From Eledone cirrhosa (lineage: Eukaryota): a stretch of 64,000 nt of DNA. The stretch lies in NCBI GenBank assembly GCA_964016885.1, contig OZ024765.1:6882001-6946000 (forward strand), read 5' to 3'. This document shows, piece after piece, positions 3,752-55,592 of this stretch. Made by a program: the position numbers and the translations under genes. Each line of letters starts with the position of its first letter. The stretch's first letter is position 1. Below the pieces are notes generated by a model, which searched no databases, was not told the DNA's origin, and saw only the letters and a list, made by a program, of their open reading frames with translations.

Positions 3752-5729
3752 GTTCCATTTTCGGCTAGTTTCTATGGCTGGATGCCTTTCCTGACACCAC
3801 CAGCTTTATATATATATATATATATATTTATTAAAATAACAGATTAAAGTTTAAGCAAAGAATCGCTGCTTTCACCCTTAACGGGATCTTCTGAAACTAA
3901 AAAAAAATCAATCTGTTTATCCTTATTGAGCCCTCTTTGGATTTTAGTTTTCACATTTATTATTATTACTCTATATATATCATCATCATCATTTTACGTC
4001 CACTTTTTCCCTGCTTGCAAGGGTGGGACGGGAACTGATTCTGGCTTGATTTCTACAGCTGGATGCCCTTCCTAACACCAACCTCATTTATAGTGAGTGC
4101 TGGGTGCTTTTTTGCCGTGGCACCTCCACGACCACTTTGCAGTGGAATTATAGGGACACCAGTCCCTATCAATTCATTTCTACAGCTGAGTAAACTGGAG
4201 CAATGTGAAATAAAGTGTCTTGCTCAAGGAAACAACACATCACCCGGTCTGAGAATTGAACTCACACTCTTTCGATTGCAAGGCCAATGCTCCAACCATA
4301 AGCCATGTGCCTCCACATATATATATATATATACACACACACTGTACCCCGTCATTTGCAGCCCCGGTTATTTGCTGAATTTTCCTTAGAACCTAACTAA
4401 TAATTGTTTGCGTAATCGTAAATATCTTCCTCAAATTTTTTATGGTTTTTTTCGTGGCAATAAATATATTTTTAATGCTAAATTATTAATAACAATATTC
4501 CATATTTGTCAACCTATTGGGCGCCCTGTCACATTAGACACTCCGTGTCCAATATTTGCAGTTTTTCACTCTTCGCTGGTGATCTAGGAAAGTAACCCTT
4601 GCGAATACCAGGGTGTGGTGTGGTGGGGGACACACAACTGTGCTATTAAGTTAGACATGGCCTGGGGCAATACTGGCCGAAACCTATCAAAGTTATATAT
4701 CATCATCATTTTACGTCCGCTTTTCCCTGCTTGCAAGGGTGGGACGGGTCTTATTCAGCACAGCATCTCTCCACTCGTCATCTCCACCGTGAGCTTCAAT
4801 GATCTGAGGTCTGTTCTCACCACCTCCGCCCATGTTTTTCGTGGTCTACTTCTACCACGTCTTCCTTCAACTGGCATATATGTATATATGTATATATACA
4901 CACACACACATGTATAGGCAATATATATATAATCATAATGAAAGGGTTTCATGTATTGAAAAAAATGATAACAAAGGTGTTTTGTGTTTTCGTTGTTATA
5001 ATTTATTTGAAAATAAAATAAAATAGTTTTAAAATTTACAAAATAAACAGAAAAAAATATCACCAAAACGCTTTGTTAGTAAGAGAGAGAGAGGAAGACA
5101 GGAAGAAGTGGTGTGTTATTTATTACTATCACCATTACATTATTATTATTATTATTACTACTACTGCTACTATTGGCAGTATCGGTAGAGGGTCGGACAT
5201 GCTTTGAAACACAGTTACCTCCCTTTAAGCCAAAAGTAGAAACAATTATTATTACTACTCTACTATAGGGCAGTATCGGCAGAGGGTTGGATGCCATGCT
5301 TTGCAGCATAGAGTTACGACCCTTTACAGTCTGAGTTCAAATACCGCCGAGGTTAACTTTGCCTTTCATCCGTACGGGGGTCGATAAAGTAAAGTACCAG
5401 TAATGCACTGGGGTAAGTAATTGCTGGCCTTGTGCCAAAAATAGAAACAATTATTATTATTATTAAGGGCGGTGGATTATCAGAGTGCTGGGCATGTTGC
5501 TTTGCAATGTAGAGTTAGGTTCTGAGTTCAAATCCCACTGAGGTTAGCTTTGCCTTTTATCCTTACAGGGTCAATAAAATAAAGTACCAGTATGCACTGG
5601 GGTCGATTTTCCCTTCTCCCAAAATTGCTGGCCTTGTGCCTAAAGTAGAAACAATTATTATTATTATTATAACTGAACACTATGTAGACAAAAGTCATGG
5701 CAATTGTCACTGGGGTGCCTGGTTCGGTC

Positions 5730-6225
5730 TGTAAACACCTTATATCTTTCATCAAAAGCCTTGGGATCCCATCTTCATAGGTAGTGCCCAAATTTCTACC
5801 ATCCCTAGCACAGCTAGAATCCTGCATGATATAGTGAGCCTCTGATATCAGGGACTGAATGGAGGCCAATTAAAACACTTCACTTAACAACTGATTGCTA
5901 CAGAAACCCTCAACACTTTACATGTTTCATCAAAATCCTTGGGATCCTCACCTTCATAAACAATTTCTACCATCCCTTATTCTGCCAGAACCCTATGTGA
6001 TTCATTGAGCCTTTGAGATCAGGGACGGATCTGAAGTCAATTAATGTTTCACCTAACAACTGTTTGCAAAAGAAACCCTAAACACCTTATGTCAATCATC
6101 AAAAGCCTTGAGATCCCCACCTTTATAGGCAGTGCCCAAAATTCTATCATCACTAGCACTGCCAGAATCCTGTATTGTGCCTCTGAGGTCAATTCACCTA
6201 ACAACTGGTTGCAAGAGAAACCTTA
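5730..6225. repeat. Diverged tandem repeat, ~165-175 bp unit, ~3 copies
   Basis: Recurrent AAACACC.TA...CATCAAAAGCCTTGGGATCC...CAACTG.TTGC...AGAAACC. Confidence 0.7.
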
Positions 6226-7029
6226 CAAAACAAATTATTGTGGCCATTTTTGTTACTTCTCTTTACTCAGTATTTCGTTGTTCTTCTGCCAGTATTTGAA
6301 TTACTAAGTACTAAGCTGTCTCCTATAGTCTTTGGTATATCTAGCACCTTTCATAAGGTTTTTGCTGTCCCAAGCAAATTAGCTTTCTATAGAGCCAGGA
6401 AGATTCACCTTTATATCCAATGGCTTCACTGGTGGTTGGTGTTCTTTAATAGTTCAAATTTTACACTGTCATTATTGGTATTAGTTCTGGTAAATCCTTG
6501 TTAACTTTCTTGGGAACTTTCTCAAATCTACTACCAGAACTAATACCAATAATGACTTACTGTAAAATTTGAACTATTAACCCTTTAGCATTTAAACTGG
6601 CTGTATCTGACCAGAATTCTCTCACCTCTTTCTGTTTAAACTGGCTGTAACTAGCCACTCATAATTATGTTAAGTTATTGTTCTCAAAATAAATAATATA
6701 AAAATCTCATAGATTTGATGTGTGAGGTAAAGCCTTTACTATGAAAATATAGAGTAATCTAAATGGTTAAATCGGCTGTATCTGGCCAGAATTCTCTCAT
6801 CTCTTTCTGTTGTAACCAGCTGCTCATGCTGATGTTAAGGTATTGTTATCAAAATAAATAATATAAAAATCTCATAGATTCAATATTATGTGAGGTAAAG
6901 CCTTTACTATGAAAATATAATAGTAAATATTGAGTAATGTAAATGCTAAAGGGTTAAAGAACACCAACTACCAGTGAAGTCATGCTCCTTTTTTTTTCAA
7001 ATATATTCATATATATATATATAAACATA

Positions 7030-7402
7030 TCGTATTTCCCGGCACCGAAGATGCTTCACCCTCGAGGATGCACCCTAATTTTGACAACCAAAAATTTTAG
7101 AAAAAAAATATTAACCCTTTAATGTTCAAACCGGCCAGAATTCTCTACCTCTTTCTGTTGAAACTGGCTGTAATTGGTCACTCAAACTGATGTTATGGTA
7201 TTGTTCTCAAAATAAATACTTTCAAAATCTCATAGATTCGATATTATGTGAGGTAAAGCCTTTACCATGAAAATATAATAGTATTTATAGAGTAATGTAA
7301 ATGCTAAAGGGTTAAACAACCTTCAGCCTTTAGGACACATGGTAGATTTTTGAGACTTATTTTAGGAAAAAATGTAGTGTCTTCAACGCTGGGAAATATG
7401 GT
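7030..7402. mobile_element. Small Tc1/mariner-pogo-like element with a piggyBac MITE nested at TTAA
   Basis: Ends CGTATTTCCCGGCACCGAAGA / TCTTCAACGCTGGGAAATATG are imperfect inverted repeats; MITE inside at 7111-7314. Confidence 0.5.
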
Positions 7403-7575
7403 GCATTCATGTATGTGCATGTATGCACCATATTTCCCAGCATTGAAGACACTACTTTCATGCACATACATGAACAAAATATCAGGTTAGTATATACAAA
7501 ATACAACACAGTCCAAAACACACAATCACACACATGCACATGTCCACAAACACACAACAAGATTCTGAACTTGCT

Positions 7576-9792
7576 TTAAAACTCATCTTTCCGTCGTGTT
7601 CCTTTCGGTCTGTTGTTGTACTTCATGCCGTAAGCTTTCCTACCACCACCATCATCATCATCATCATCATCATCATCGTCATCGTCATCATCATCATCGT
7701 CGTCATCTTTCGTCCCTTTGCCTCTGTTTTGTCGTTTTGTTGCCTTCCGATCCCGTCGTTCTTGTTTCATGTCTCTCTTTGTTCCCCCTGAGGGGTTGAC
7801 CTCTGGAGCCATGTTAGCTTTTATTATGTCCTCGTGCCTTTCATACACCATGTGGCCCTTCGAGCTGTCCCCTCCAACCCTGCTCGTGTCTCCATCACGT
7901 TGAGCATGACCAGTTTCTCTTCCACCACCACCAGTATCACCAGCTCGACCATGATAGCCAGCCCTGCCACTGCCACCACCACTACTGCTACCACCACTGC
8001 CACCGCCAGCCCTACCACCACTGCTACCACCACCGCCACCACCACCACCACTACCACCACCGCCACCACCACCACCGCCGCCGCCACTACCACCACCACT
8101 ACCACCACCGCCACTACCACCACCACTGCCACCACCACCATCACCACCACAGAGACAGGCATTCCTCTGTGATTGCTGGAAAGTCTTGCAGCCAACGGCA
8201 ACTGTTGTCTTGTAGGCCAGGGCTGCTATACTGACACAACCTGGCAAATAGAGAGAGAAAACAATGAGAATATAGATTGGTAAATTGTATATATGTTGAG
8301 TATCTATCTATCTATCTATCTATATCATAATATTTGTCCCCTTCTTTTGAGCCCCTGTGGCTAATAAAGAAATATATCTATATCATAATATAATAAAGTA
8401 AGGAATGCGGGACTGTGTCCTGAATATATTTTTTTATCTCATTTGTAAAATAAGTTGGATTACTTTTAATAAATAATTGTTTCTACTTTTGGCACAAGGC
8501 CAGCAATTACCCCAGTGCATTACTGGTACTTTATTTTATCGACCCTGCAAGGATGAAAGGCAAAGTAAACCTCAGTAATGAATAATTTATCTACTAAATT
8601 TCGTAACTGTTGATTAAATATAAATAATTTTATTTGGTTATTTCAAGATTCACTTCTTTAAAATTTTCAAATGTTAACACTTCCGGTTAGCGTCCATTAT
8701 ATTATAACACTTATCACATCACTTATATAAACTTTCATATATTTGCATCGTTATATAAGGTTTATATTTCTGTCGCTAATTTTCTCCTAATGGAATTTAT
8801 ATATAATATCATCTTTTTTAAATGTATCATGGATTACTTTACTGATTAAATAAGACAGTGTAACACAGTCTCTCTTCAATCTGTGCATATTGTCAAATAC
8901 GATTTTATTTGACGTATCATATCTACATGTATATATATTTGTGTATAATATCAATATGTACACTACACTAAATGGTGGTTTTTCTGCTAGTAATTGTTTC
9001 TACTTTAGGCACAAGGCCAGCAATTACCCAGTGCATTACTGGTACTTTATTTTATCGACCCCCGTAAGGATGAAAGGCAAAGTCAACCTCGGCGGGATTT
9101 GAACTCAGATTGTAAAGGGACGTAACTATGCTGGAAAGCATGGCGTCCGACTCTCTACTGATACTGCCAATCCACCACCCGCTAGTAATAATAACAAATA
9201 AGAAGACCAAAATCCAATATATAGCCCGAAAAAGCCAAGAGGCCAATACACACCTTCATATAACTCTGTACCTCCAGTAGCTGTGTGTAAGTTCTTACAT
9301 ATCAACTTGAGGCAGTCCTGAAACTGGTTGTCACAGACGCTCTTGTTACTGTTACAGAGATCATAGCAAAAGTCATGGGTCTCACAGCATGCTGTGACGG
9401 CAGGGAAGAGTTGGGAATCAATCTGAAACAGAAAATAGCAGGTATATATCACCATCATCTTCATATAGACATCTAATATGCACCACTAAACACCTACCCT
9501 CCCTCCCTCCCCCTTCCATACACCCCCCCCCCGCGCCCTATTCACCCCCACCCTTCTCCAGTCCACACTGTAAAGTGATTGTGAAGGTTGTCATGCCAAA
9601 AAGCACCCTGCACACACTGTAAATTTGGTTGGCATCAGGAAGGGCATCCAACCATAGAAACCAAACCTGAAACAGTCCTGTAGGTCACCTGACCTGACTT
9701 GCCTCAAATGGGACAACATGTCTAACCCATGCTTGTGTGGAAAGTAGACGTTAAACGATGATGATGATGTAAATATATATATATATATATAC

Positions 9793-18027: not shown

Positions 18028-29174
<11,147 letters not shown>

Positions 29175-29671
29175 TTCAGAGTAGATTAAATGGATGGTGG
29201 ACTGTGGAAATAGAGTTTAACAGATTGAGGGATGTCGGCGGTGGTGATGGTGTAGGTGATTGTGAGGATGGTGATTGTAGTGATAGTGGTGGTGGTGGTG
29301 ATTGTTATAGTGATAATGATTGTGGTGGTGATGATTGTTATAGTGAGAATGATTGTGGCGGTGTTGGTGTTGGTGATTGTGATGATTGTTATAGTGATAA
29401 TGATTGTGTTGGTGTTGCTGATTGTGGTGGTGGTGATGATTGTTATAGTGATAATGATTGTGTTGGTGTTGCTGATTGTGGTGGTGGTGATGATTGTTAT
29501 AGTGATAATGATTGTGGTGGTGTGGGTGTTGGTGATTGTGGTGGTGGTGATGATTGTTATAGTGATAATGATTGTGGTGGTGGTGATGATTGTTATAGTG
29601 ATAATGATTGTGGTGGTAATGGCTGTGTTGTTGGTGATGGTGGTGGTGGTGATTTCAGTTGTGTATGTCCA

Positions 29672-31540: not shown

Positions 31541-32433
31541 GCACTTATCTGTAAACAACCAATCGAATACATTAAAGCTATATGTCTCACTCTACCACCA
31601 AATTGAGGTCAAACTGAGGTCAAGGTTTAAAATATAGATTGGGCCATTAATCCTTGCCCTTTCTCCTCACATTTATTGTCCTTTCCAATACTACTTTAGC
31701 AGAAATTGTTCTTTAAAATAATTGTTTCTACTTTTGCCACAAGGCCAGCAATTATCTCAGTGTATTACTGGTACTTTATTTTATCGACCCCGTAAGGATG
31801 AAAGGCAAAGTTAACCTTTATTTTGGCTGCGAGAAGGATCCTTAATGAAGATTAGGTTATAAGGCTGCATGTTTAATGTTGGTAGTCCACGTGGAAGGAT
31901 CAGACAAGAAAGTACAGTGAGGAATAAAAGCAATGGTTTATTTTTCTCTGTAAATTATTACAAGTACTAAAAGATTAACCCTTTAGCATTTACATTACTT
32001 TATATTAACTATTGTATTTTTGTGGTAAAGGCTTTATCTCACATAATATCTCACATAATATTGAATCTATGAGATTTTGATATTATTTATTTTGAGAACA
32101 ATACCTTAACATAAGTATGAGCAGCTGGCTATGGCTGATTTGAACAGAAACAGGTGAGAGAATTCTGGCCGGATATGGCCGGTTTAAATGCTAAAGGGTT
32201 AAAAAGCTGCTGGCATGCCGCATGATTAAGTTGAACTAGTTGTTGGGCCCTTGCCGACAGGGCCAAAGTTTCTTGGTAAGTTCTACATCTTGCCAGTTGC
32301 TCGAGGGAATAGATTTAGTAACATCTTGTCTCTATGAAAATGAAGCTGGAACTGTTTCTGAAGTAAAAAAAGAGACGCAAATTTTCTAGCTGGGTGGAAG
32401 TCATTTGTCGATATTTCTACGCCGTTGACTTAC

Positions 32434-33350: not shown

Positions 33351-35251
33351 ATCATCATCATCATCATCTATGGGAAGAGACCAGATGGTCTTACTATTTC
33401 TCCTTGACTAAAAGATAGGCATCTCACAAGTGAGATGCCTATCTTTTAATGACTATTTTGCTCCTTCCCACGTCCTGGATGTAAGAGTGTTAGACTTACG
33501 ATTAGAATGTCATGGCTTTGATTCATGGACTGAGTTGTGTGTTGAGTTCTTGAGCAATGCACCTCATTTCACGTTGCTCCAGTATACTCATCTGAAAATG
33601 AATGCCAGCAGTAGCTACAGGTTTAACTCTACGATGGACTGGCGCCCTGTCCAGGGGAGGGGAAGTATTGTACTCTCCATCGCTTAACGCTATAGAAACT
33701 GGGGTTAAACATCGGCATGATGAACCTCTAGGGACCAGATTTTAGACATCCTGGAAGCTATAACGTAAGTGAGAGTCACTGCACACGTAGACGGAAGAAA
33801 TAGAGTTTTGAAATATCGTACCTAGAATTCGCTGATAACGAAATTATTGTCAGTGTTGGTGATTCACCTTACTGAAATATCAAGTGGTGCGGGGTAAAGT
33901 GCTTGGCTGATTCAGCGGCTTACCCTCGTCATCACCTGGCCCTACTGAAGTAGCAGGTGATGGCGCTTGGCTATTTCGAGCGCCTCGGCCACGCTATCAT
34001 CCTCAGTCTTTCATGGCTTGCTTTAAAAAAAATCTTTTAAATGGACACATCAATATTACCGCCAACGAAATTTTACTCACAAAGCACTGATCGTCTAGAG
34101 GCTATAAACATACATGTACAAAGTGCCATGCAGTAGAAGCGAACCTGAAACCACGGGAATTATAAAGAAATTAGAATGGCTAACCTTGTTATGATCTCAG
34201 CCACGATGTTGAGTCTCCTGGCAAGTATAATTCAACAGGGGAGATAACTACCATACAACTACCGGCAAACTATTTTGGTCTCAAAGTGCATATGTAAACA
34301 TGTAAATGTGTCTATTGATGCGTATAAAAGTTTGTATGTGTATACCTATTTATGCGTGTAAAAGCGTGTGTGTAAACCTATTGATGTATATATATATATA
34401 TATCTTAACCCTTTAGCATTTACATTACTCTATATATACTTTATTTTACATAATATCTCACATACTATCGAATCTACGAGATTTTGATGTTATTTATTTT
34501 GAGAACAATAGCTTAAAATCAATACAAGCGGCCAGTTACGGGGGGTTTGAACAGAAAGAAGTGAGAGAATTCTGGCCAGATATGGCCGGTTTAAATGCTA
34601 AAGGGTTAAAGATATATCTTAAGTATGGTCATTGGTACTCGGTAAAGGTAATTAGACTCGTACCAAGGTAGAGATGATCGTCTTCTGAATACCGAGCATC
34701 ACTTGGTATCGATGTCTCCCAGATGGGCATCAATATAAAAGTGTGTGTGAGTGTACCAATTGATGCGTGTAAAAGTGTATGTGTAACTATTGATGCGTGT
34801 AAGGCCCGATCGTGAAAGTAACGTGCAAGTGACCGACGTTCCACTGATACGTGCAACCTTGGGAGATTCCAGACATGTCAAATCTCCCAGGCCGACGGGG
34901 AGATTTGCAAAAGCCTCTGGTTGAGGGGCTGCGCCCCGCGGACAAAACCGCAAAAGCATTCCTGCGGACAATGACCAGCGACATTCGCTGCGACAGCCAC
35001 CCAACCTCGCGGGGCTTCTTCCTCAGACGGGCCGCCGGCGTTGCGATCTTGCGGAGGAACTCGACTGTGCGAGGTCCAATTACGCCTCAGGTCTCACTAT
35101 ATGTCTCACTCCACCATCAAATTGAGGTCAATGCTGCGACGAGGGTCCGTCTCGTGTGGGTTTATATTTCAGTGCACTCTAGAGTTAAGACAGTGTAAAT
35201 ACATGCAAGTAGGAACGAAATCAAAGTTGCCCCATAAATAAACTTAATTAA

Positions 35252-35337
35252 ACATGACAAATGTTTCGATATCAATCAGCTCAGGGTTCGATCATAATTA
35301 TCGGGTCCCGACTCTACATCGACATCTCATCAGATAT
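35252..35337 (-). ncRNA. Type I hammerhead ribozyme motif with extended stem II and GUC triplet
   Basis: Minus strand: ATAT-CTGATGA-GATGTCGAT...ATTGATATC-GAAAC-ATTT-GTC-ATGT. 9-bp basal stem II with G-U pairs and further inner pairing; 4-bp stem I. Confidence 0.78.
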
Positions 35338-35640
35338 GTGAGTTCAGGTTCGTAGGCACAGAGCTCATTCAGAGTTTAAATGCGCTCTGTACGCACACAC
35401 ACACACACATGTATCAAATTTAAATGTGGCGTTAAAAACTCTCAATAATCCCCTATAAAATCAAATAATCTCAAGGAACAAATTCCGAGCTCTTTATAAA
35501 ACAGTAAGGAGAGAAATACACATAAATAATATCCTCTATGAACGAACACATATATTTATGTGTATTTATACATATATGTTTTATATATATGTTATTCAAA
35601 ATATTAATAAATGAAGACGTTCACATAATAAAAATATATG

Positions 35641-35702
35641 TTTTATTATGTATATTTCGGAGGTACTGTGCTGTTTTTTCAGTACGTCCTCATCAGATAA
35701 AA
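35641..35702 (-). ncRNA. Type I hammerhead ribozyme motif
   Basis: Minus strand: TTTTAT-CTGATGA-GGAcGTACTG-(11 nt loop)-CAGTACcTCC-GAAAT-ATAC-ATA-ATAAAA. Perfect 6-bp stem I, G-C closed stem II, AUA triplet. Confidence 0.8.
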
Positions 35703-35994
35703 TACATGAATTGATGTATGACATACCTCAACTGTGTTGATGGTTTAATTCCAGTCTTGGCAGTATGTTATACATATATATACTTTTGACAATCACTTGT
35801 AACGTAATAAATATGAGCAACAGGAAATGACCGATGGCAACTGATACATAAACAATCAGTGTCACAAGGTGGCCTGACACCGTATTACATATCGTCGTAA
35901 ATACGCACTTACCCACATACATATATATATATATATACATACATACACATATACACACACATTATGTATATATATATATACATATATACATGCA

Positions 35995-36043
35995 CGTATT
36001 GTTTGAAACCTGTTTATTAAAGTTATGTTTTGTATGATAACAG
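35995..36043 (+). other. Candidate non-coding upstream exon of the chitinase
   Basis: Consensus donor CAG|gtaagt at 36043. The first coding exon has an acceptor (tttctatttcag|) at 38044, 7 nt before the ATG, so an upstream exon is expected. The start coordinate is a guess. Confidence 0.3.
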
Positions 36044-36375
36044 GTAAGTTCTAAACAAGAAGCAGTGTACGATTTAACATTTACATCACACAAAGTAATG
36101 TTCTTTTGTTAATAAGATAGTTAAAATATTGGCTTTTATTGGTAATACATCTATAACTAACACAGTGGAAATATCTCGTACGATTCATTGCGTAAATATA
36201 TATATATATATGTATATAAATATATATATATGTATAAATATATATATACATATCTATTTAAATTGTTGGGATACAATAAGCAAATATTTTTATAACTGAT
36301 ATAAAGCACTCAACAAATAATTGGAGTAAAAATACGATATTAACAAATGGAAACTATATTTATAAAACCATATTT

Positions 36376-36438
36376 ATTTCATTATACCTATTTCAAGGAC
36401 ACCAAGTTAAATTATGGTGTGCTTTCATCAGATAAAAT
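36376..36438 (-). ncRNA. Type I hammerhead ribozyme motif (left arm of palindrome)
   Basis: Minus strand: ATTTTAT-CTGATGA-AAGCACACCA-(loop)-TGGTGTCCTT-GAAAT-AGGT-ATA-ATGAAAT. Confidence 0.72.
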
Positions 36439-36537
36439 TTAATATAGAGCAGTTTTATAAATCGGGAGCTTCCAACAGAAATGGTTGCATTCTTTAAGGG
36501 TATGTCAATATTTATTTATAAAACTGCTCTATATTAT

Positions 36538-36598
36538 ATTTTATCTGATGAAAGCGCACCATAATTTAAATTGGTGTCCTTGAAATGTATAATGAAAT
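36538..36598 (+). ncRNA. Type I hammerhead ribozyme motif (right arm of palindrome; minimal stem III)
   Basis: ATTTTAT-CTGATGA-AAGCGCACCA-(loop)-TGGTGTCCTT-GAAAT-GT-ATA-ATGAAAT. The stem III loop is only 2 nt, as in dimer-dependent minimal hammerheads. Confidence 0.68.
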
Positions 36599-36644
36599 AA
36601 ATATGGTTTTATAAATATAGTTTCCATTTGTTAATATCGTATAT

Positions 36645-36708
<64 letters not shown>

Positions 36709-36793
36709 TACAAATGTGACAAATCGAAACATCAAATATGTTTGATTCTTGTGCTTCTCAATAAACAAGCTCGATAGACTGTCTATAGCCATG

Positions 36794-36794
<1 letters not shown>

Positions 36795-36831
<37 letters not shown>

Positions 36832-36874
36832 GAAATACTGTTGGCTTCACGTTCACAATAATTTCTATACTTTC

Positions 36875-36919
<45 letters not shown>

Positions 36920-36941
36920 GGTGTGTGTGTGTATAAATATA

Positions 36942-36991
<50 letters not shown>

Positions 36992-37026
36992 TATGGGAGT
37001 GTATAATATTTACATATGTATATGTA

Positions 37027-37060
<34 letters not shown>

Positions 37061-37091
37061 CTTATTTATGTATATATATATGTATATATTA

Positions 37092-37126
<35 letters not shown>

Positions 37127-37511
37127 TTATTTATGTATATATATTATATATTCTTATTTGTGTATATATATATATATATATATACTTATTTATGTATATA
37201 TATTATATATATATACTTATTTGTATATATTTATATATGTGTGTATATATATATATACTTATTTGTATATATATATATGTGTGTATATATATATATACTT
37301 ATTTATGTATATATATATATATATATATATATACTTATTTATGTATATATATTATATATATACTTATTTATGTATATATATTATATATATACTTATTTAT
37401 GTATATATATTTTATACATATTTGTGTATATATATATATTATATATACTTATATATGTATTTATATATATATATATATACTTATATATGTATTCATATAT
37501 ATATATATATA

Positions 37512-37578
<67 letters not shown>
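36795..37578. repeat. (TA)n compound microsatellite
   Basis: Direct inspection. Confidence 0.95.
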
Positions 37579-37582
<4 letters not shown>

Positions 37583-37641
37583 CAAGGCTCTGATACAATC
37601 AACACTATAAACACAGAGCTGGCATATCTAAGAACTGACTA

Positions 37642-37697
37642 ACTGCCTGATGAGGTCATAGCCACTCAATTGCTATTATCGAAATATATATAGCAGT
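37642..37697 (+). ncRNA. Type I hammerhead ribozyme motif upstream of the chitinase first coding exon
   Basis: ACTGC-CTGATGA-GGTcATAGC-(CACTCAATT)-GCTATtATC-GAAAT-ATAT-ATA-GCAGT. Perfect 5-bp stem I, intact core, palindromic stem III loop. Confidence 0.82.
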
Positions 37698-37742
37698 AAA
37701 TCAAGGATTATGAGTTCATGCAATTGACTTATGTGTCGTCAC

Positions 37743-37784
<42 letters not shown>

Positions 37785-37975: not shown

Positions 37976-38051
37976 CTGTGTGGTATACATGTATCAACAT
38001 TTTATAAAGTTTGTAATAAAGTTATATTTTTCTTTCTATTTCAGTATTTTA

Positions 38052-41000
38052 ATGATGTCTTCCATCTACATATATATTTTGGCTGTGTTTTGTCTAACTT
38101 CTGCCATTGCTAGTAAGTCTAAATTTAATCCTATTTATTTCTCCTATCCTTTATTAGTTTGATCCAAAGTATATTTTATCATGGAATTCTTAAGTTATTT
38201 TCCAGAATCCATGGAGCCCGTACTTATATTTTACTTTAACTCTTAACGTCAAATGCAACATGAAACCACCTTAACAGACATTCTTGACTGTATCACATTA
38301 ACCCTTTACCATTTATATTACTCTATATTTACTATTGTATTTCCACTGTAAAGGCTTTACCTCACATAACATTTACATTACTCTATATTTACTATTGTAT
38401 TTCCACTGTAAAGGCTTTACCTCACATAACATTTATATTACTCTATATTTACTATTGTATTTCCACTGTAAAGGCTTTACCTCACATAACATTTACATTA
38501 CTCTATATATACTATTATATTGTCACAGTAAAGGCTTTACCTCACATAATATCTCACATAACATTTACATTACTCTATATTTACTATTGTATTTCCACTG
38601 TAAAGGCTTTACCTCATATAACATTTACATTACTCTATATATACTATTATATTTTTGTGGTAAAGCTTTACCTCACATAATTATCTTACATAACATTTAC
38701 ATTACTCTATATTTACTATTATATTTTAACAGTAAAGGCTTTATCTCACATAATATTGAATCTATAATTTTGATATTATTTATTTTGAGAACAATACTTT
38801 AACATCAGTTTGAGTGGCCAATTACAGCTGGTTTGAACAGAAGGAGGTTTGAAAATTCTGGCCAGATATGACTGGTTTAAATGCTAAAGGGTTAAACATT
38901 CTTGACTGCATCACATTAACCCTTTAGCATTTAAAACGGCCGTATCCAGGCAGAATAATTCCCTCACCTTTTTCTGTTCAAACTGGCCATAACTGGCTGG
39001 TCATACTAATGTTAAGGTATTGTTCTCAAAATAAATAATATCAAAATCACATAGATTCGATATTATGTGAGATAAAGCCTTTACCGTGAAAATACCATAA
39101 TATATATTGAGTAATGTAAATGTTAAAGAGTTGGTAGACATCAAAGTCTTTACTTTAATACTGTAAATTTTCTCAACAATCTGTCCTCCAGTAAAGATAC
39201 TATAAACATTTGTATTAACAAACCACATGAAACCATATTGACAGGACATTCTCAAAAAGTACAAAACAGCTCTATGACTGCATTACATTAACCCTTTAGC
39301 ATTCACATTACTCTATATATACTATTATATTTTCATGGTAAATGCTTTACCGCACATAATTATCTCACATAATATCGAATCTATGAGATTTTGAAAGTAT
39401 TTATTTTGAGAACAATACCTTAACATTAGTTTGAGTGACCAGTTACAGCCAGTTTCAAGAGAAAAGGGTAGAGAATTTTGGCCGGTTTGAACATTAAAGG
39501 GTTAAACATTAAAGTCTTTACTGTAATACTGTAAATTTTCACAGTAAAGATACTATAAATATGTTTTGCTGTTATTTGTAGTTGTTATACTTTCTGTTAA
39601 TGTTGTAGCTGTTGTTGTTGCTGTTCTTGTTACTGTAGCTGTTGTTGTTGTTGTGTACTACTTCCATTGGTAGTTGCTGTTCTTGTTGCATACCACCTGT
39701 GTTGTTGTGTACTACCGCTCCAGTTTACTAGTATCTCTGCTTTCACTTCCAGATGCTGGGGCCTCCAAAAAAATAGTGTGTTACTATGTAACAAGTCTTT
39801 CAAATTATTCCACCCCACTGCCACCCGGGCTTGACCCCACCCTGTGTACCCACATCATCCTAATCGGAACAGCCATTATCGATGGACAGATCAAGCCATC
39901 GAAACCTGTCGACACAGAGATTTACTACAAGAAGATCCCTTTAATGAAAAAACTGAACCCTAATTTAAAAGTGTTGTTGTGTAATGGAGGAGATTTCAAT
40001 GGCGTCCTTGCCACTAGTGAGAACCGAACCAGGTAACACAACATACAGTACCTGATTTTGTCAATTATATATATATATCATCATCATCATTTTATGTCCA
40101 CTTTTCCCTGCTTGCAAGGGTGGGACGGGAACTGATTCTGGCTTGATTTCTACCCAGCACTCACTGTAAATGAGGTTGGTGCTAGGAAGGGCATCCAGCT
40201 GTAGAAATCAAGCCAGAATCAGTTCCCGTCCCAGCCTTGCAAGCAGCGAAAAGCAGACATAAAATAATGATGATGATGATAGTAGAACATTGGTGAGTTA
40301 TATCTGTAGTAGTAGAGCACTCAGTCTATGGGACGAGTTTGGTAGAAGTATTTTATTACAAATTTTCCAGTTGGTTGGTTGGTTATTTTGTCTCTCCTTT
40401 GTTCTGTTCTACACCATCTTGTGTAGGTCAGAACAAAGGAGGGATACAAAATAACAAATTTGTCATTGAAGAGGTTACAGAATGTGTGACAAAAGAGCTT
40501 TGACAATAAATAAACAACCATCTAGTTGATTCTAAACTTATATTTCGTTTCAACAATTGTTTTTATCGTTCTTTGTCTTTTATTTTATTTTTTCTAGATA
40601 TGTCAACAGTTCTTTGCCCTTACTCAGGAAATATGGTTTTGATGGCTTGGACCTTGATTTTGAATTTCCTGCTTGGCAGGGTTTACCCAAAGCACAGAAA
40701 CATTCCTTCAGCCTGTTGTTAATGGTAACTACTTTCAGTATAGAATACTTCCATTAGTTATATGTACGTATGCGAGTGTGTATGTATGTATAGCATTTAA
40801 ATCGATCGTTTCCAGCCAGAATTCTCTCACTTCTTTCTGTTCAAACCGGCTGCTCATACTTATGTTAAGGAATTGTTCTCAAAATGAATAAAATCAAAAT
40901 CTTGTAGATTCAATATTATATAAGATAAAGATTTTACCACGAAAATACAATAGTATATACAGAGTAATGTAAATGTTAAAGGGTTAAATATTAAAATCTA

Positions 41001-44000
41001 TATTTCTGCTAAATCCTTACAAGATGTTAGAAGAAAGGTTGATCAACAAGATCCAAGACCTCATTCGCTTAACAAGTGGGATGGAGCTCGTCAAATCGGA
41101 CCGAGGAAACATTTCTGTTGGCCTTTCCAATTGCTAATACTATCTGTCGGTCGCAAGACAAGATGTTAACAGATAAAAATATGTCAGAGTTTTTTGATGT
41201 AATGTTGCAGGAACTGTATGGTGTCTTTCAACAAGAAGCTGCTCTTACCATGAGACCACGGCTAATGTTAACTGCTGCAGTAGCTGCAACAAAAGCAATA
41301 ACTGATGCATCTTATGAGGTGCCGATTCTTGCCAAGTCAGTATCTGTCCTGTATTACTGTACAATGTCTCTATATATCCTTAATGAACACACATATATAT
41401 ACACATTCACACACATATATACACATACACACACATATATACTCATACACACACATTTCACCATATTACGGGATATTCAGAAGATCCCATAATAGGGTGG
41501 AAGCAGTTTTTTTTTTTGCTTAAACTTTAATCTGTACTAATAATAAATATTTGCTTGATGAGTTTATATATACTTTTTTATATATATTTATACAATCCTT
41601 ATCAAGCCCTCTTCAGATTTTGGTCTTCATATTTATTATTATATTGATCAGTAAGGTCCCAGACATAATTCGCTTCCCAAATGGGGTGGAACTTGTGAAA
41701 ATCAGACCAAGGAAACAATGTTTCCATTGGTCTTTCCATTACTGATACTATCTGTCAGTCACAACTCCTGGCAGAAGAAAGGAGCTGATCATCAGATCAG
41801 ACCAAAGAAACAATGTTTCCATTGGTCTTTCCATTACTGATACTATCTGTCAGTCACAACTCCTGCCAGAAGAAAGGAGCTGATCATCAGATCAGACCAA
41901 AGAAACAATGTTTCCATTGGTCTTTCCATTACTGATACTATCTGTCAGTCACAACTCCTGCCAGAAGAAAGGAGCTGATCATCAGATCAGACCAAAGAAA
42001 CAATGTTTCCATTGGTCTTTCCATTACTGATACTATCTGTCAGTCACAACTCCTGCCAGAAGAAAGGAGCTGATCATCAGATCAGACCAAGGAAACAATG
42101 TCTCCATTGGTCTTTCCATTACTGATACTATCTGTCAGTCACAACTCCTGGCAGAAGTAAGGAGCTGATCATCAGATCAGACCAAGGAAACAATGTCTCC
42201 ATTGGTCTTTCTATTACTGATACTATCTGTCAGTCACAACTCCTGGTAGAAGGAGCAACATGAAATAAAATGTCTTGCTCAAGGAGATAAACACATCATC
42301 CAGTCCAGGAATCAAACTCACAACCTCACAATTACAAATCCAGTTCTCTAACCAATAAGCCATATGCCTTCATTTGTCCTCTTTAACCTTCTCTCTCTCT
42401 CCCCTACCAGAGTGTTGGACTTCATCAACCTTATGTGTTATGACTACCATGGTTTTGCCTACTATGATCCCTTTACTGGCTTCAACAGTCCTCTCTACCC
42501 AGAAAAACACGACAGTATCTATGGTAACCGATCCATTGTAAGTCTGAAACTTATTTAATCTTTTATTATTTTACACGTTTGAGGGCAGTGGATTGGCAGA
42601 ATAGGGAGAGTGGCAGACGCCATGCTTTGCACCATAGAGTTATGGTTGGATTATCAACTCATCTAAACTCTTAATTAGTTTTCATTCCAACATAGCTGTA
42701 CACATATAAGTATGGGAATTTTGTATATCTAATAATATATGGTATGTTTACGAATAAACATTTGAAAGCCTTTAGCTATGAATTTTGGAAGCTGATGGCT
42801 AACGCCATCTAGTGGAATCCAGCTGAGGCAGTAGAGGATAACTATCGACAATCATTTCTGGTTTGTATAATAATAATGAAATTATTGTGTACAGTGCTCA
42901 GGTGCACTACAACTCATCAAAGGTGCATGTATAGTACATAGAATAATGTACAAATGTCAGGAAAATGAAGTGTATGAGTCATGATATAATAATAATAATA
43001 ATAATAATAATGAAATATTGTGTACAGTGCCCAGGTGCACCACAACTCATCAAAAAGTGCATGTACAGTACATAGGGCAATGCACAAACATCAGTAAAAT
43101 GAACAGTGCACGAGTCATGATACACACATGTGCATGTGTATGGAAGGGGTACATCAGGTGTAGTTTTGGCGTATTTCGGGAAGCATGAGTGTCTTAAAGA
43201 ATGCAGGTAGTGCTTCCCCTACTTTGCTCTTTGCTGGAATTTAATACAGGAGAAAATATATAGATTTGACACCTATGTACATGGACTGATTAGCTTCATT
43301 TGTATATGGAGCTGTCAGGCCGACTCAGCCTGATATATCATCATCATCATTTTATGTCAGCTTTTCTCTGCTTGCAAGGGTGTGATAAGTCCTTCTTCAG
43401 CACAGCATCTATATCATCATCATCATCATCATCATTTTATGTCAGCTTTTCTCTGCTTGCAAGGGTGTGATAAGTCCTTCTTCAGCACAGCATCTATATC
43501 ATCATCATCATCATCATCATTTTATGTCCGCTTTTCCCTGCTTGCAAGGGTGGGATGGGTCTTATTCAGCACAGCCTCTCTCCACTTGTCACGGTCCTTC
43601 GTCATCTCCTCGGTGAGTTTCAGCGATCTGAGGTCTGCTCTCACCACCTCCGTCCGTCTTTTTTGTGGTCTACCTCTACTGCATCTTCCTTCTATATATT
43701 ATATATAGTAGTGTATATATAATATATAGAAGTGTATGTATACTAGTGTATGTATAATATATATATACACTAGTATATATAATATATATACACAAGTATA
43801 TATATTATATATTCACTAGCATATATATATTATATATACACTAACATATATATATATATATATATATTTTTTTTTTTCTAAAAAATATATCATACAGAAA
43901 ACGCCAGCACCTACAGTTTTCCAAGAGATGTCAACATGAAAGGACCTATTATTTTTATCTAAAGACATTTTTTCCAATTCCAACCCACCCGTCCCCTGAA

Positions 44001-53432: not shown

Positions 53433-55592
53433 CACACATATATATATATACATACACACACATATATATATATCAGAATGCATGCAGTAAAAGCAAGTTA
53501 GACCATTACTCACCATAGTACTCAATACTTCTTGTAGTAGAGTGTGTAATAAGAAACATTTGGGACCCCGACGGTTGAGCTCCTGCCGTTTCAACCGCTA
53601 GATAGCTGTTGAAACGGCAGGAGCTCAACCGTCGGGGTCCCGAATCTTTCATATGTGTGTATCAATATATATATATACATACATAGGATATAATTACAGT
53701 GCAGTGCCTTCTCGAATTCTGTTTTATCATTATGTTCTTACTAGTGTATATTTTACAGAGATATGTTTTACGTAGTATAAAGGATATGTTGATGACATTA
53801 AAATAAATCAGTTAAATATTTTATGATATTTTCATTATTGTATATAGTTCCTTTCGTTAACGTTATCATTTCCTAAATACTTTACAATCTGTGTTTATAG
53901 AAGACTAAACACACTGGAAAATTTGTTCATCATAACCGTCCAATTACATGTGTATAAATAAATAATATCAGTCTTGTTAACGCCAAGGTTTTTAAACAGG
54001 AGCGTGATGTCAGTTCTACAGCTATTAATATATAATACACACATAATATACACATTCGAAAATATATCTGCGAAATTTCAGTAAAAAATACTCATTATTA
54101 AGAAAGTTATGGGGAAACGAAGACCGAGGGCCCACTAAGCTAGAGTTATGTCAATAATTCTTCGTAAGCTTCTATTTAAACAACTTCGTACTAAAGACAC
54201 CCACTTTTTCTTAGAATAGATTCTACACAGATATTATATATATCCTATCCTATCCAGAGACCTTCTCACCCCCGCTGGAGGAACCCCTCCCTGGTTGACC
54301 TCCACCGATTTCTGATTAGTTTTGGTCATATCTTCAGGGGTGCACACGTACTCACCTCGCTTGACCAATTGCGGGTTGGTGAGAAATGATATATATATAT
54401 ATGTGTGTGTATATAAAAGGTAAACAGAAATAACAACACAATCGGTACAGTATATGGAAGGAATGTATTAGGTTAATATATATATATATATTTATTTATA
54501 TATCGATGGCCTTCTCACTCCTGTTGAACGAACTCCTCCCTGGTTAACCCCCACCATTTCTGTTATGTTTTGGTCATGTCAGGGATGTAGCTGTACTCAT
54601 CATGCTTGGCCAATTGCGGCTTGGTGAACTATTTAACCCATAGTTAGGGTGGATGGCCATTGGTTTAAAGGAATCGATCCACCCTTTTAACAGCTCTTGT
54701 TTTTGGGTGCTGCTGGGGGTTCCACTTACCCTCCTCACGAGACCAGGGTACGGCATGGCCAATACTGGCCTGACTTGTTTCGCAACGTGGACGACCTGTC
54801 TAACCCATGCAAGCATGGAAAATGGCCATCCATACTGATGTTAAGGTATTGTTTTCAAAATAAATACTATCAAAATCGCATAGATTCGATATTCATCATC
54901 ATCATCATCATCATCTTCGTTTAACGTCCATCTTCCACGCTAGCATGGGTTAGACGGGAGTTGTCTCACTTGAGGCAAGGCTGGTCGGGTGACCGTGTCT
55001 CGCTCATATAGGACTGTCTGGCAGGTTTTCTACGGTTTTCTACGGCTGGATGCCCTTCCTAACACCAACCACATTTACTGTGTGGAACTGGGAACTTTTT
55101 ACCGTGTTACCTACACGGCCACATTACAGCGTGGACTGTGTGTTTTTTTTTTCTCGTGACACCTACACGATCTCAATCATCTCATTTATTTGGACTGGAT
55201 GTTGTGGTACCAACTTTATAGAGAGAGGATGGTGTTGGTGGGTGGATAGGGTAGGGGTAGTGGATATTATGTGAGGTAAAAGCCTTTACCAGGAAAATAT
55301 AATAGTAAATATAGAGTAATTAAATGTTATGTGAGGTAAAGCCTTTACTGTGAAAATATAGTAAATATAGAATAATGTAAATATTATGTGAGGTAAAGCC
55401 CTTACTGTGAAAATATAATAGCAAATATAGAGTAATGTAAATGTTATGTGAGATAAAGCTTTTACCGAGAAAATATAATAGTAAATATAGGGTAATGTAA
55501 ATGCTTTTTTTTTTTCTTCAATTTCAGTATATTTTATTTATTTATAAATTTATTTGTTAATTTTTCTGTTGTATCTGCCAGTTGTTTTCAGA

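Follow-up and report, generated by a model that had tools for sequence, protein, structure and literature searches.

Five hammerhead ribozyme motifs lie within 2.5 kb of DNA between two divergent genes of Eledone cirrhosa, one similar to ALDH9A1 and the other to a chitinase, and it may be asked what brought so many of them together and whether they serve their neighbours. The window analysed is a stretch of 64,000 nucleotides (contig OZ024765.1 of assembly GCA_964016885.1, positions 6,882,001 to 6,946,000), and the coordinates below count from its first letter. In a sequence-only reading of the window two answers were offered, either a hotspot for hammerhead-bearing elements such as Penelope-like elements (PLEs) beside (TA)n tracts, or a retained array that cleaves divergent or upstream transcripts. 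Our analysis supports the first of these and sharpens it to the 3' ends of Hydra-type PLEs. The five motifs are very probably the hammerhead-bearing 3' ends (pLTRs) of four Hydra-type PLE families, left by four independent 5'-truncated insertions beside TA repeats, with no function for the neighbouring genes.

A descriptor made up of CTGANGA, stem II, GAAA, helix III, UH and a stem I of at least 4 bp recovered all five minimal type I motifs, each with an intact core and in its reported place. On the minus strand they lie at 35252-35337 (family A), 35641-35702 (family B) and 36376-36438 (inverted C), and on the plus strand at 36537-36599 (forward C) and 37642-37697 (family D); for the forward C motif the reported place stands and the ends, previously 36538-36598, move slightly. 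The cleavage triplet is GUC in A and AUA in B, both C motifs and D, with cuts predicted after 35256 (A), 35647 (B), 36383 (inverted C), 36591 (forward C) and 37692 (D). A sixth motif, at 2405-2465 on the plus strand, was absent from the earlier list; it belongs to a C-related family and has its palindromic helix III intact. In 600 kb of grid samples the descriptor gave 28 matches, and in three dinucleotide shuffles it gave 0, 0 and 0. Three of the 28, all within a (GAT)n run at locus L149, were rejected as false, leaving 25. Among 12 motifs picked from the descriptor matches (5 from the window, 7 from the grid), double-sided changes were found at 13 of 19 stem pairs, a count equalled by 0 of 500 shuffles, and of the 6 distal stem II pairs, which the descriptor left free, 5 covary; this set comprises families B, C and D with their relatives, family A being left out, and kinship among its rows inflates the counts. 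The five motifs are real and not a product of chance. None of the 103 Rfam matches in the window at E<=1 is to a hammerhead family, and AT-rich minimal variants may score under the Rfam filters; the matches that fell at TA hairpins were set aside as miRNA-like noise. Further hammerhead families were seen in grid samples L125, L158, L108, L126, L133 and L141, with a helix III of AUGCGCAU, ACGCGU or ACAAUUGU or with a 4-bp stem, the AUGCGCAU family being common among them.

Each of the window motifs has many relatives in the same genome. Searching the 3.0-Gb assembly yielded at least 953 first-look candidates for family C, 340 for D, 706 for B and 784 for A, of which the best 40 of each were scored; among these the best other copies are 75-86% identical to the window copy in A, 95-97% in B and 96-98% in D. 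Homology around each window motif spans just 175-400 nt and stops in TA tracts. As judged from this search, A appears to be an old, 5'-truncated Hydra-type PLE 3' end with part of its tail (35128-35373, minus), linked to an EN-like frame at L282/L283, and B a 5'-truncated PLE 3' end (35589-35764, minus) whose relatives at L197, L194, L274 and L275 have a Hydra-type frame upstream on the same strand. Family C is represented by an inverted 5'-truncated copy (36250-36462, minus) with a tail of about 90 nt (about 36250-36331) and by a forward 5'-truncated copy (36463-36642, plus) that finishes at the short end, and in L190, L191 and L192 the family is joined without a break to a Hydra-type frame. 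A (TA)n/(CA)n target tract follows on the right (36643-36700) and a matching TA tract precedes on the left (about 36190-36250). The D copy, a 5'-truncated PLE 3' end assigned by genome search and frame linkage, has TA tracts on both sides (37578-37748, plus). When compared with its nearest copies only, window A is off the commonest letter at 14 of 132 columns, and the B, C and D copies are off at 2-6 of 131-174, a sign that the insertions differ in age. The association with TA is general: across the 251 non-overlapping loci kept for such counts (54 that overlapped others were dropped, as were 6 that were the cluster's own or adjacent to it), 210 of 219 motifs have (TA)4 in the 200 nt downstream, versus 1401 of 5000 random pieces. 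It had been proposed that the four families differ in their stems; B and C, however, are related in stem I and in the layout of stem II.

Other repeats share this neighbourhood. A GC-rich repeat at 34920-35096, with at least 3304 first-look candidates at 85-87% identity, abuts the truncated family A tail. A repeat family that has 60-nt tandem subunits and inverted copies surrounds the cluster (38247-38810, 31954-32164, 34405-34610 and 38916-39075) and also occurs in L010 and L019. Two hairpins with near-perfect arms of about 45 bp each, at 53553-53650 and 26961-27059, are possibly small inverted insertions.

The mirrored C pair had been taken for a local duplication, and this view we reject. 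An inverted-plus-forward insertion is the structure of the whole family: both arms are present at 30 of 39 other scored places, most of the pair is present at 1, and a single arm or another arrangement is seen at 8, the count of 30 being biased upward because the places were ranked by likeness to the mirrored pair. Over about 130 nt, the two arms in the window are distinguished by 3 substitutions and one 2-nt gap. Since the pair is one inverted-plus-forward insertion, the five motifs reduce to four events. A neighbouring inverted copy was also seen at 10 of 39 scored places in family B, and the unselected grid holds 3 head-to-head pairs among 22 events. Family C elements end in two ways, at a short end followed by TA (18 cases) or after a tail about 90 nt longer (23 cases); in the window the long end is on the inverted arm and the short end on the forward arm.

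Upstream walks from the longer copies enter a microsatellite-rich 3' UTR of 1.0-1.8 kb and then a coding frame with reverse transcriptase (RT) and GIY-YIG parts. Of 29 family D loci, for which 1.5-1.7 kb upstream of each hammerhead was read, 13 have the end of the frame upstream in the same orientation (one of them seems to belong to another family) and 1 has it on the opposite strand; the DNA between frame and hammerhead is continuous in 8 of 8 comparisons. In family C such continuity was found in 2 of 5 comparisons, L191 matching L190 and L192 over about 2.4 kb. Locus L190 carries the tandem order hammerhead, tail, start codon, internally deleted frame, UTR and second hammerhead, that is pLTR-frame-pLTR, and there the family C tail runs into the start codon of the next element, about 185 nt past the predicted cut. 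Four family B loci have a same-strand frame upstream, in two upstream types that have in common only pieces of the frame and the last 50 nt. In family A an EN-like end is continuous with the hammerhead in 2 loci at 67% identity, with weak protein matches and partial overlapping support elsewhere; the upstream walk from L081 gave weak matches only, and the frame link was reached from L266. On these sequence comparisons the link from hammerhead to frame is firm for C and D and weaker for B and A, A being the weakest. Neptune-like frames near L038 and L098 were considered as parents and rejected, as other repeats intervene between them and the hammerheads.

The frames themselves point to the Hydra clade, for which Craig et al. 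give as marks, in the part of their text available, a CxCX5C linker, the lack of CCHH and a DKT motif (PMC8557442). The linker is present in all 3 C loci and all 3 D loci, in 2 of 4 loci related to B and in none of 5 A loci. In the B, C and D frames read, one cysteine stands between the GIY-like and YIG-like motifs, so the CCHH cysteine pair is absent, and DKT in place of DKG was read in family D (L270). None of the family A frames, from 5 loci, had a readable Hydra motif. Family D tracks Hydra-1_Obim motif by motif when set by eye against the published alignment. The B, C and D frames share the linker and the lack of CCHH with the Hydra clade, and D also DKT, which makes them putative members by motifs and by eye. 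Unnamed proteins of 594-904 aa, 36 in number, are related to the frames. Pfam gave no name to any of 5 Hydra-type fragments, and of 5 unnamed full-length relatives not one passed the Pfam cut-offs, though one gave a weak GIY-YIG match. At L277:4197-6263 on the minus strand the family D frame is open over 689 codons and its linker contains a long low-complexity insert, and L271 holds several nested Hydra-type frames from different families.

Dispersal, 5' truncation, two alternative 3' ends, TA flanks and the inverted-plus-forward trait of the family were all seen directly. Published PLE biology suggests how they may have arisen: the endonuclease would nick a (TA)n target, reverse transcription would prime at either of two internal sites immediately beyond the hammerhead and stop early, and an oppositely primed second strand would yield the inverted copy. 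Two internal priming sites would account for the optional tail. The hammerhead of a parent element would act as a dimer, joined through its palindromic helix III, and cut tandem transcripts about 185 nt before the next start codon.

Setting the false matches aside, the grid samples from the contig of the window hold 15 motifs, from 13 events, in 200 kb, and those from elsewhere 10 motifs in 400 kb, 25 in 600 kb in total; hammerheads are thus about three times as dense on this small contig (grid L120-L139) as in the rest of the grid. At 5 motifs in 2.45 kb, the cluster is about 27 times denser than its contig. It had been argued that an equal density genome-wide would help to reduce the cluster to ordinary debris; taken literally the densities are far from equal, yet five motifs within 2.45 kb recur at four other loci (L034, L054, L063 and L174) among the 251 non-overlapping loci, most of which had been chosen for one such element. 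These four clusters comprise three events each (three or four at L174, by a rough grouping), versus four events from four families in the present cluster. Under a plain Poisson model about 0.9 four-event clusters would be expected on the window's contig. Events are also more frequent in the flanks of hammerhead loci than in the grid (103 versus 37 per Mb), which shows that these elements cluster. As the motifs are the tail ends of a common element, probably brought by four separate insertions beside TA repeats, the cluster is likely to be ordinary retroelement debris. Outside this contig a density of about 25 per Mb gives an estimate of roughly 75,000 copies, from just 10 matches in 400 kb. 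The genome holds several Hydra-clade families and tens of thousands of their copies, and such a high copy number would make a genome-wide test of minimal PLE hammerhead activity in vivo feasible, through depletion of or damage to sense intronic copies.

The alternatives turn on the neighbouring genes and on the state of the ribozymes. The identity of the two divergent flanking genes was upheld, and the ALDH9A1 start codon proved to lie about 6 kb from the cluster. The best PDB match of the minus-strand exons is 4-trimethylaminobutyraldehyde dehydrogenase (ALDH9A1), and the plus-strand exons encode a GH18 chitinase. In the ALDH9A1-like gene the first coding exon (29006-29201, minus) has its ATG at 29174, and in the chitinase gene the signal-peptide exon (38045-38112, plus) has its ATG at 38052. 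An acceptor-like site stands just ahead of each start codon, and a non-coding first exon is therefore likely upstream of both. Between B and C lies an island (35765-36190) that is a candidate for first exons or promoter. Its non-microsatellite parts look single-copy: in the genome search its TA/CA part alone had matches elsewhere, and the absence of a match does not show rarity. Each strand of the island has a donor-like GTAAGT, at 35912 (minus) and 36044 (plus). Were the first exons in the island, four of the motifs would lie sense in first introns. A group XII secretory phospholipase A2 gene has an exon downstream of ALDH9A1, at 9129-9485 on the minus strand. Inside the chitinase gene, at 41606-42347, about six copies of a 95-nt unit lie in tandem and resemble 41080-41160; each has CTGATGA on its minus strand and none matched the descriptor. 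To the left of the window (contig positions 6872001-6882000, L200) are cysteine-rich exons that we take to resemble granulin repeats.

The motifs had been described as complete, which is true of their cores; in their stems, helix III or stem II is damaged in each copy relative to its family. An intact core was found in 8 of 18 copies of family A, 18 of 22 of B, 66 of 76 of C and 44 of 48 of D. Departure from the commonest letter is somewhat lower in core than in other columns in A (0.067 versus 0.118), D (0.008 versus 0.015) and C (0.012-0.016 versus 0.019-0.020), a point against plain debris, and equal in B. Helix III departs from the family in 4 of the 5 window copies: family members have another letter than the window in 17 of 18 copies of A, 20 of 22 of B and 75 of 76 for the inverted C, and the forward C has a 2-nt gap relative to 62 of 75 family copies, which leaves its helix III shorter and still self-complementary. 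A palindromic helix III is the family norm; in the window it is fully self-complementary in D and in the shortened forward C, and has 6 of 8 pairs in the other three. The comparison copy C_L006 carries a helix III change of its own and is no intact control. D has two changes in stem II, with a stem II energy of -3.3 kcal/mol versus -9.5 in an intact copy. These lesions in helix III point to decay or disarming rather than to a retained array. Judged from their sequences, the window copies are likely inert, because each is a lone copy, or has as neighbours copies on the other strand or from another family, and helix III is damaged in most.

Disarming by the host is the form in which a function for the neighbours fares best. 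The insertions would have the same origin, the two genes would start in the island, A and B would lie sense in intron 1 of ALDH9A1 and forward C and D sense in intron 1 of the chitinase gene, and selection would have favoured copies with a damaged dimer helix, since active ones would cut the pre-mRNA. The acceptor-like sites ahead of both start codons, the single-copy look of the island with its donor-like site on each strand, the departures in helix III and the stem II changes of D all agree with this, and drift alone explains the excess of helix III lesions only moderately well. Nonetheless, the excess (2 of 5 self-complementary in the window versus 37 of 43 unselected motifs, p=0.039) comes from a post hoc test of a region picked after looking, the forward C helix remains self-complementary, and the inverted C is damaged too, though it would be antisense or upstream in that layout. 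Donor-like hexamers occur by chance in AT-rich DNA, and on general grounds the loss of sense intronic insertions would be simpler than their tuning. We consider this course of events very unlikely, and still less likely the proposition drawn from it, that ALDH9A1 and chitinase share a start region in the island with four of five hammerheads sense in first introns and disarmed or tuned at the dimer helix by selection. If it were true, a genome with 10^4-10^5 hammerhead-bearing Hydra ends would show a host filter on active sense-intron ribozymes, and such a filter would be the first population-level evidence of RNA cutting by minimal PLE hammerheads in vivo, a matter not settled in the available part of the literature on these elements.

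That the ribozymes form a retained, co-opted and active array, which cuts divergent or upstream transcripts of both genes, is highly improbable. All five cores are intact, as is the norm in their families. The polarity does flip at the palindrome axis, with motifs pointing outward from the centre, as had been observed; once the C pair is set aside, its polarity being forced by mechanism, that of A, B and D has a 1-in-8 chance. B and the inverted C lie 735 nt apart on one strand with cross-compatible stems I (6 and 6 bp), but the helix III of the mixed dimer reaches just -1.6 kcal/mol, and all other window pairings fail in stem I. The folds of both C motifs contain a long stem I and a long stem II (z -3.4 to -3.6), and the short form of B also folds with stems I and II, but the lowest-energy structure of D is not a hammerhead (z -0.7). 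In the available text of published work, minimal PLE hammerheads did not cleave as monomers and cleaved little as dimers (PMC4209133), and for an anole element the predicted RNA ends were missing, not one read stopping at the cut site (PMC11167929). With the C pair explained as an insertion structure, similar clusters at four other loci and lesions in the stems, the cleaving array of the sequence-only reading has found no support. That the motifs are units of non-LTR retrozymes, or the palindrome a MITE-like DNA element, is barely credible: most copies are short and non-coding, one family C tandem dimer with 221-nt spacing exists (L034), and a 2026 preprint, in the part available, regards retrozymes as PLE derivatives (10.64898/2026.07.22.740005), but the cluster has no head-to-tail tandem units, the 5' ends are variable and run into a coding frame, a linkage that largely refutes this origin, and the arms of the palindrome hold hammerheads and tail while its centre is variable, its outer ends are unlike and single arms are common.

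The nearest published counterparts are the Hydra-clade PLEs, the minimal hammerheads of metazoan PLEs and the retrozymes of animals. In the available text of Craig et al. 2021 all Hydra-clade families insert into (TA)n and bear hammerheads (PMC8557442 / 10.1101/2021.04.23.441226), and the supplement lists Hydra-1_Obim from Octopus bimaculoides. Like these C-terminal EN+ PLEs, the elements described here have RT followed by GIY-YIG in a single frame, (TA)n targets, a hammerhead near the 3' end, 5' truncation and a tail. Their hammerheads differ from those of File S2, with no match in the part of it compared: stem II is longer, with a mismatch after three pairs, and B, C and D have the triplet AUA, U15.2-A16.2 and a helix III palindrome of AU only. 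The Hydra-clade families of this genome carry an AU-rich form of the hammerhead, which escapes Rfam and is missing from the clade's listed hammerheads. The family C tail, at about 90 nt, is longer than the 30-40 nt quoted for the clade in the available text (PMC8557442), and the 3' UTRs are long and rich in microsatellites. A search of the literature on hammerhead ribozymes and Octopus gave, judged by title, none on octopus hammerheads; the main text of the O. vulgaris repeat paper, as available, has no "hammerhead", "ribozyme" or "Hydra", and its supplements and repeat library may include these families.

With the non-LTR retrozymes of animals the motifs share a type I hammerhead within a short non-coding dispersed repeat, but retrozymes are described in the accessible text as head-to-tail tandem units, and here single or head-to-head truncations of coding elements are found (10.64898/2026.07.22.740005). 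The likeness to the minimal hammerheads of metazoan PLEs is closer, with type I topology, a short palindromic helix III and many families per genome (PMC4209133, from the part available). Cephalopods are not among the hosts in the available part of that survey, by Cervera and de la Pena in 2014, where mostly single truncated copies were reported; the estimated copy number of roughly 75,000 here exceeds the 4,000-9,000 quoted there for coelacanth and frog, figures obtained with different descriptors. Frangieh et al. report, in the text available, that a PLE protein nicks AT-rich DNA on both strands, that reverse transcription starts from two internal sites and that the hammerhead is dispensable for insertion in vitro (PMC11167929). 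PLEs also tend to land beside earlier copies, according to the accessible part of a review (PMC6765202). In Schistosoma, hammerhead pairs lie 100-700 bp apart on opposite strands (PMC4209133, as available), and in the supplement of Craig et al. Penelope-13_HM has a 5'-truncated inverted copy with a hammerhead on each strand (PMC8557442), an arrangement also seen in the mirrored C pair of the window.
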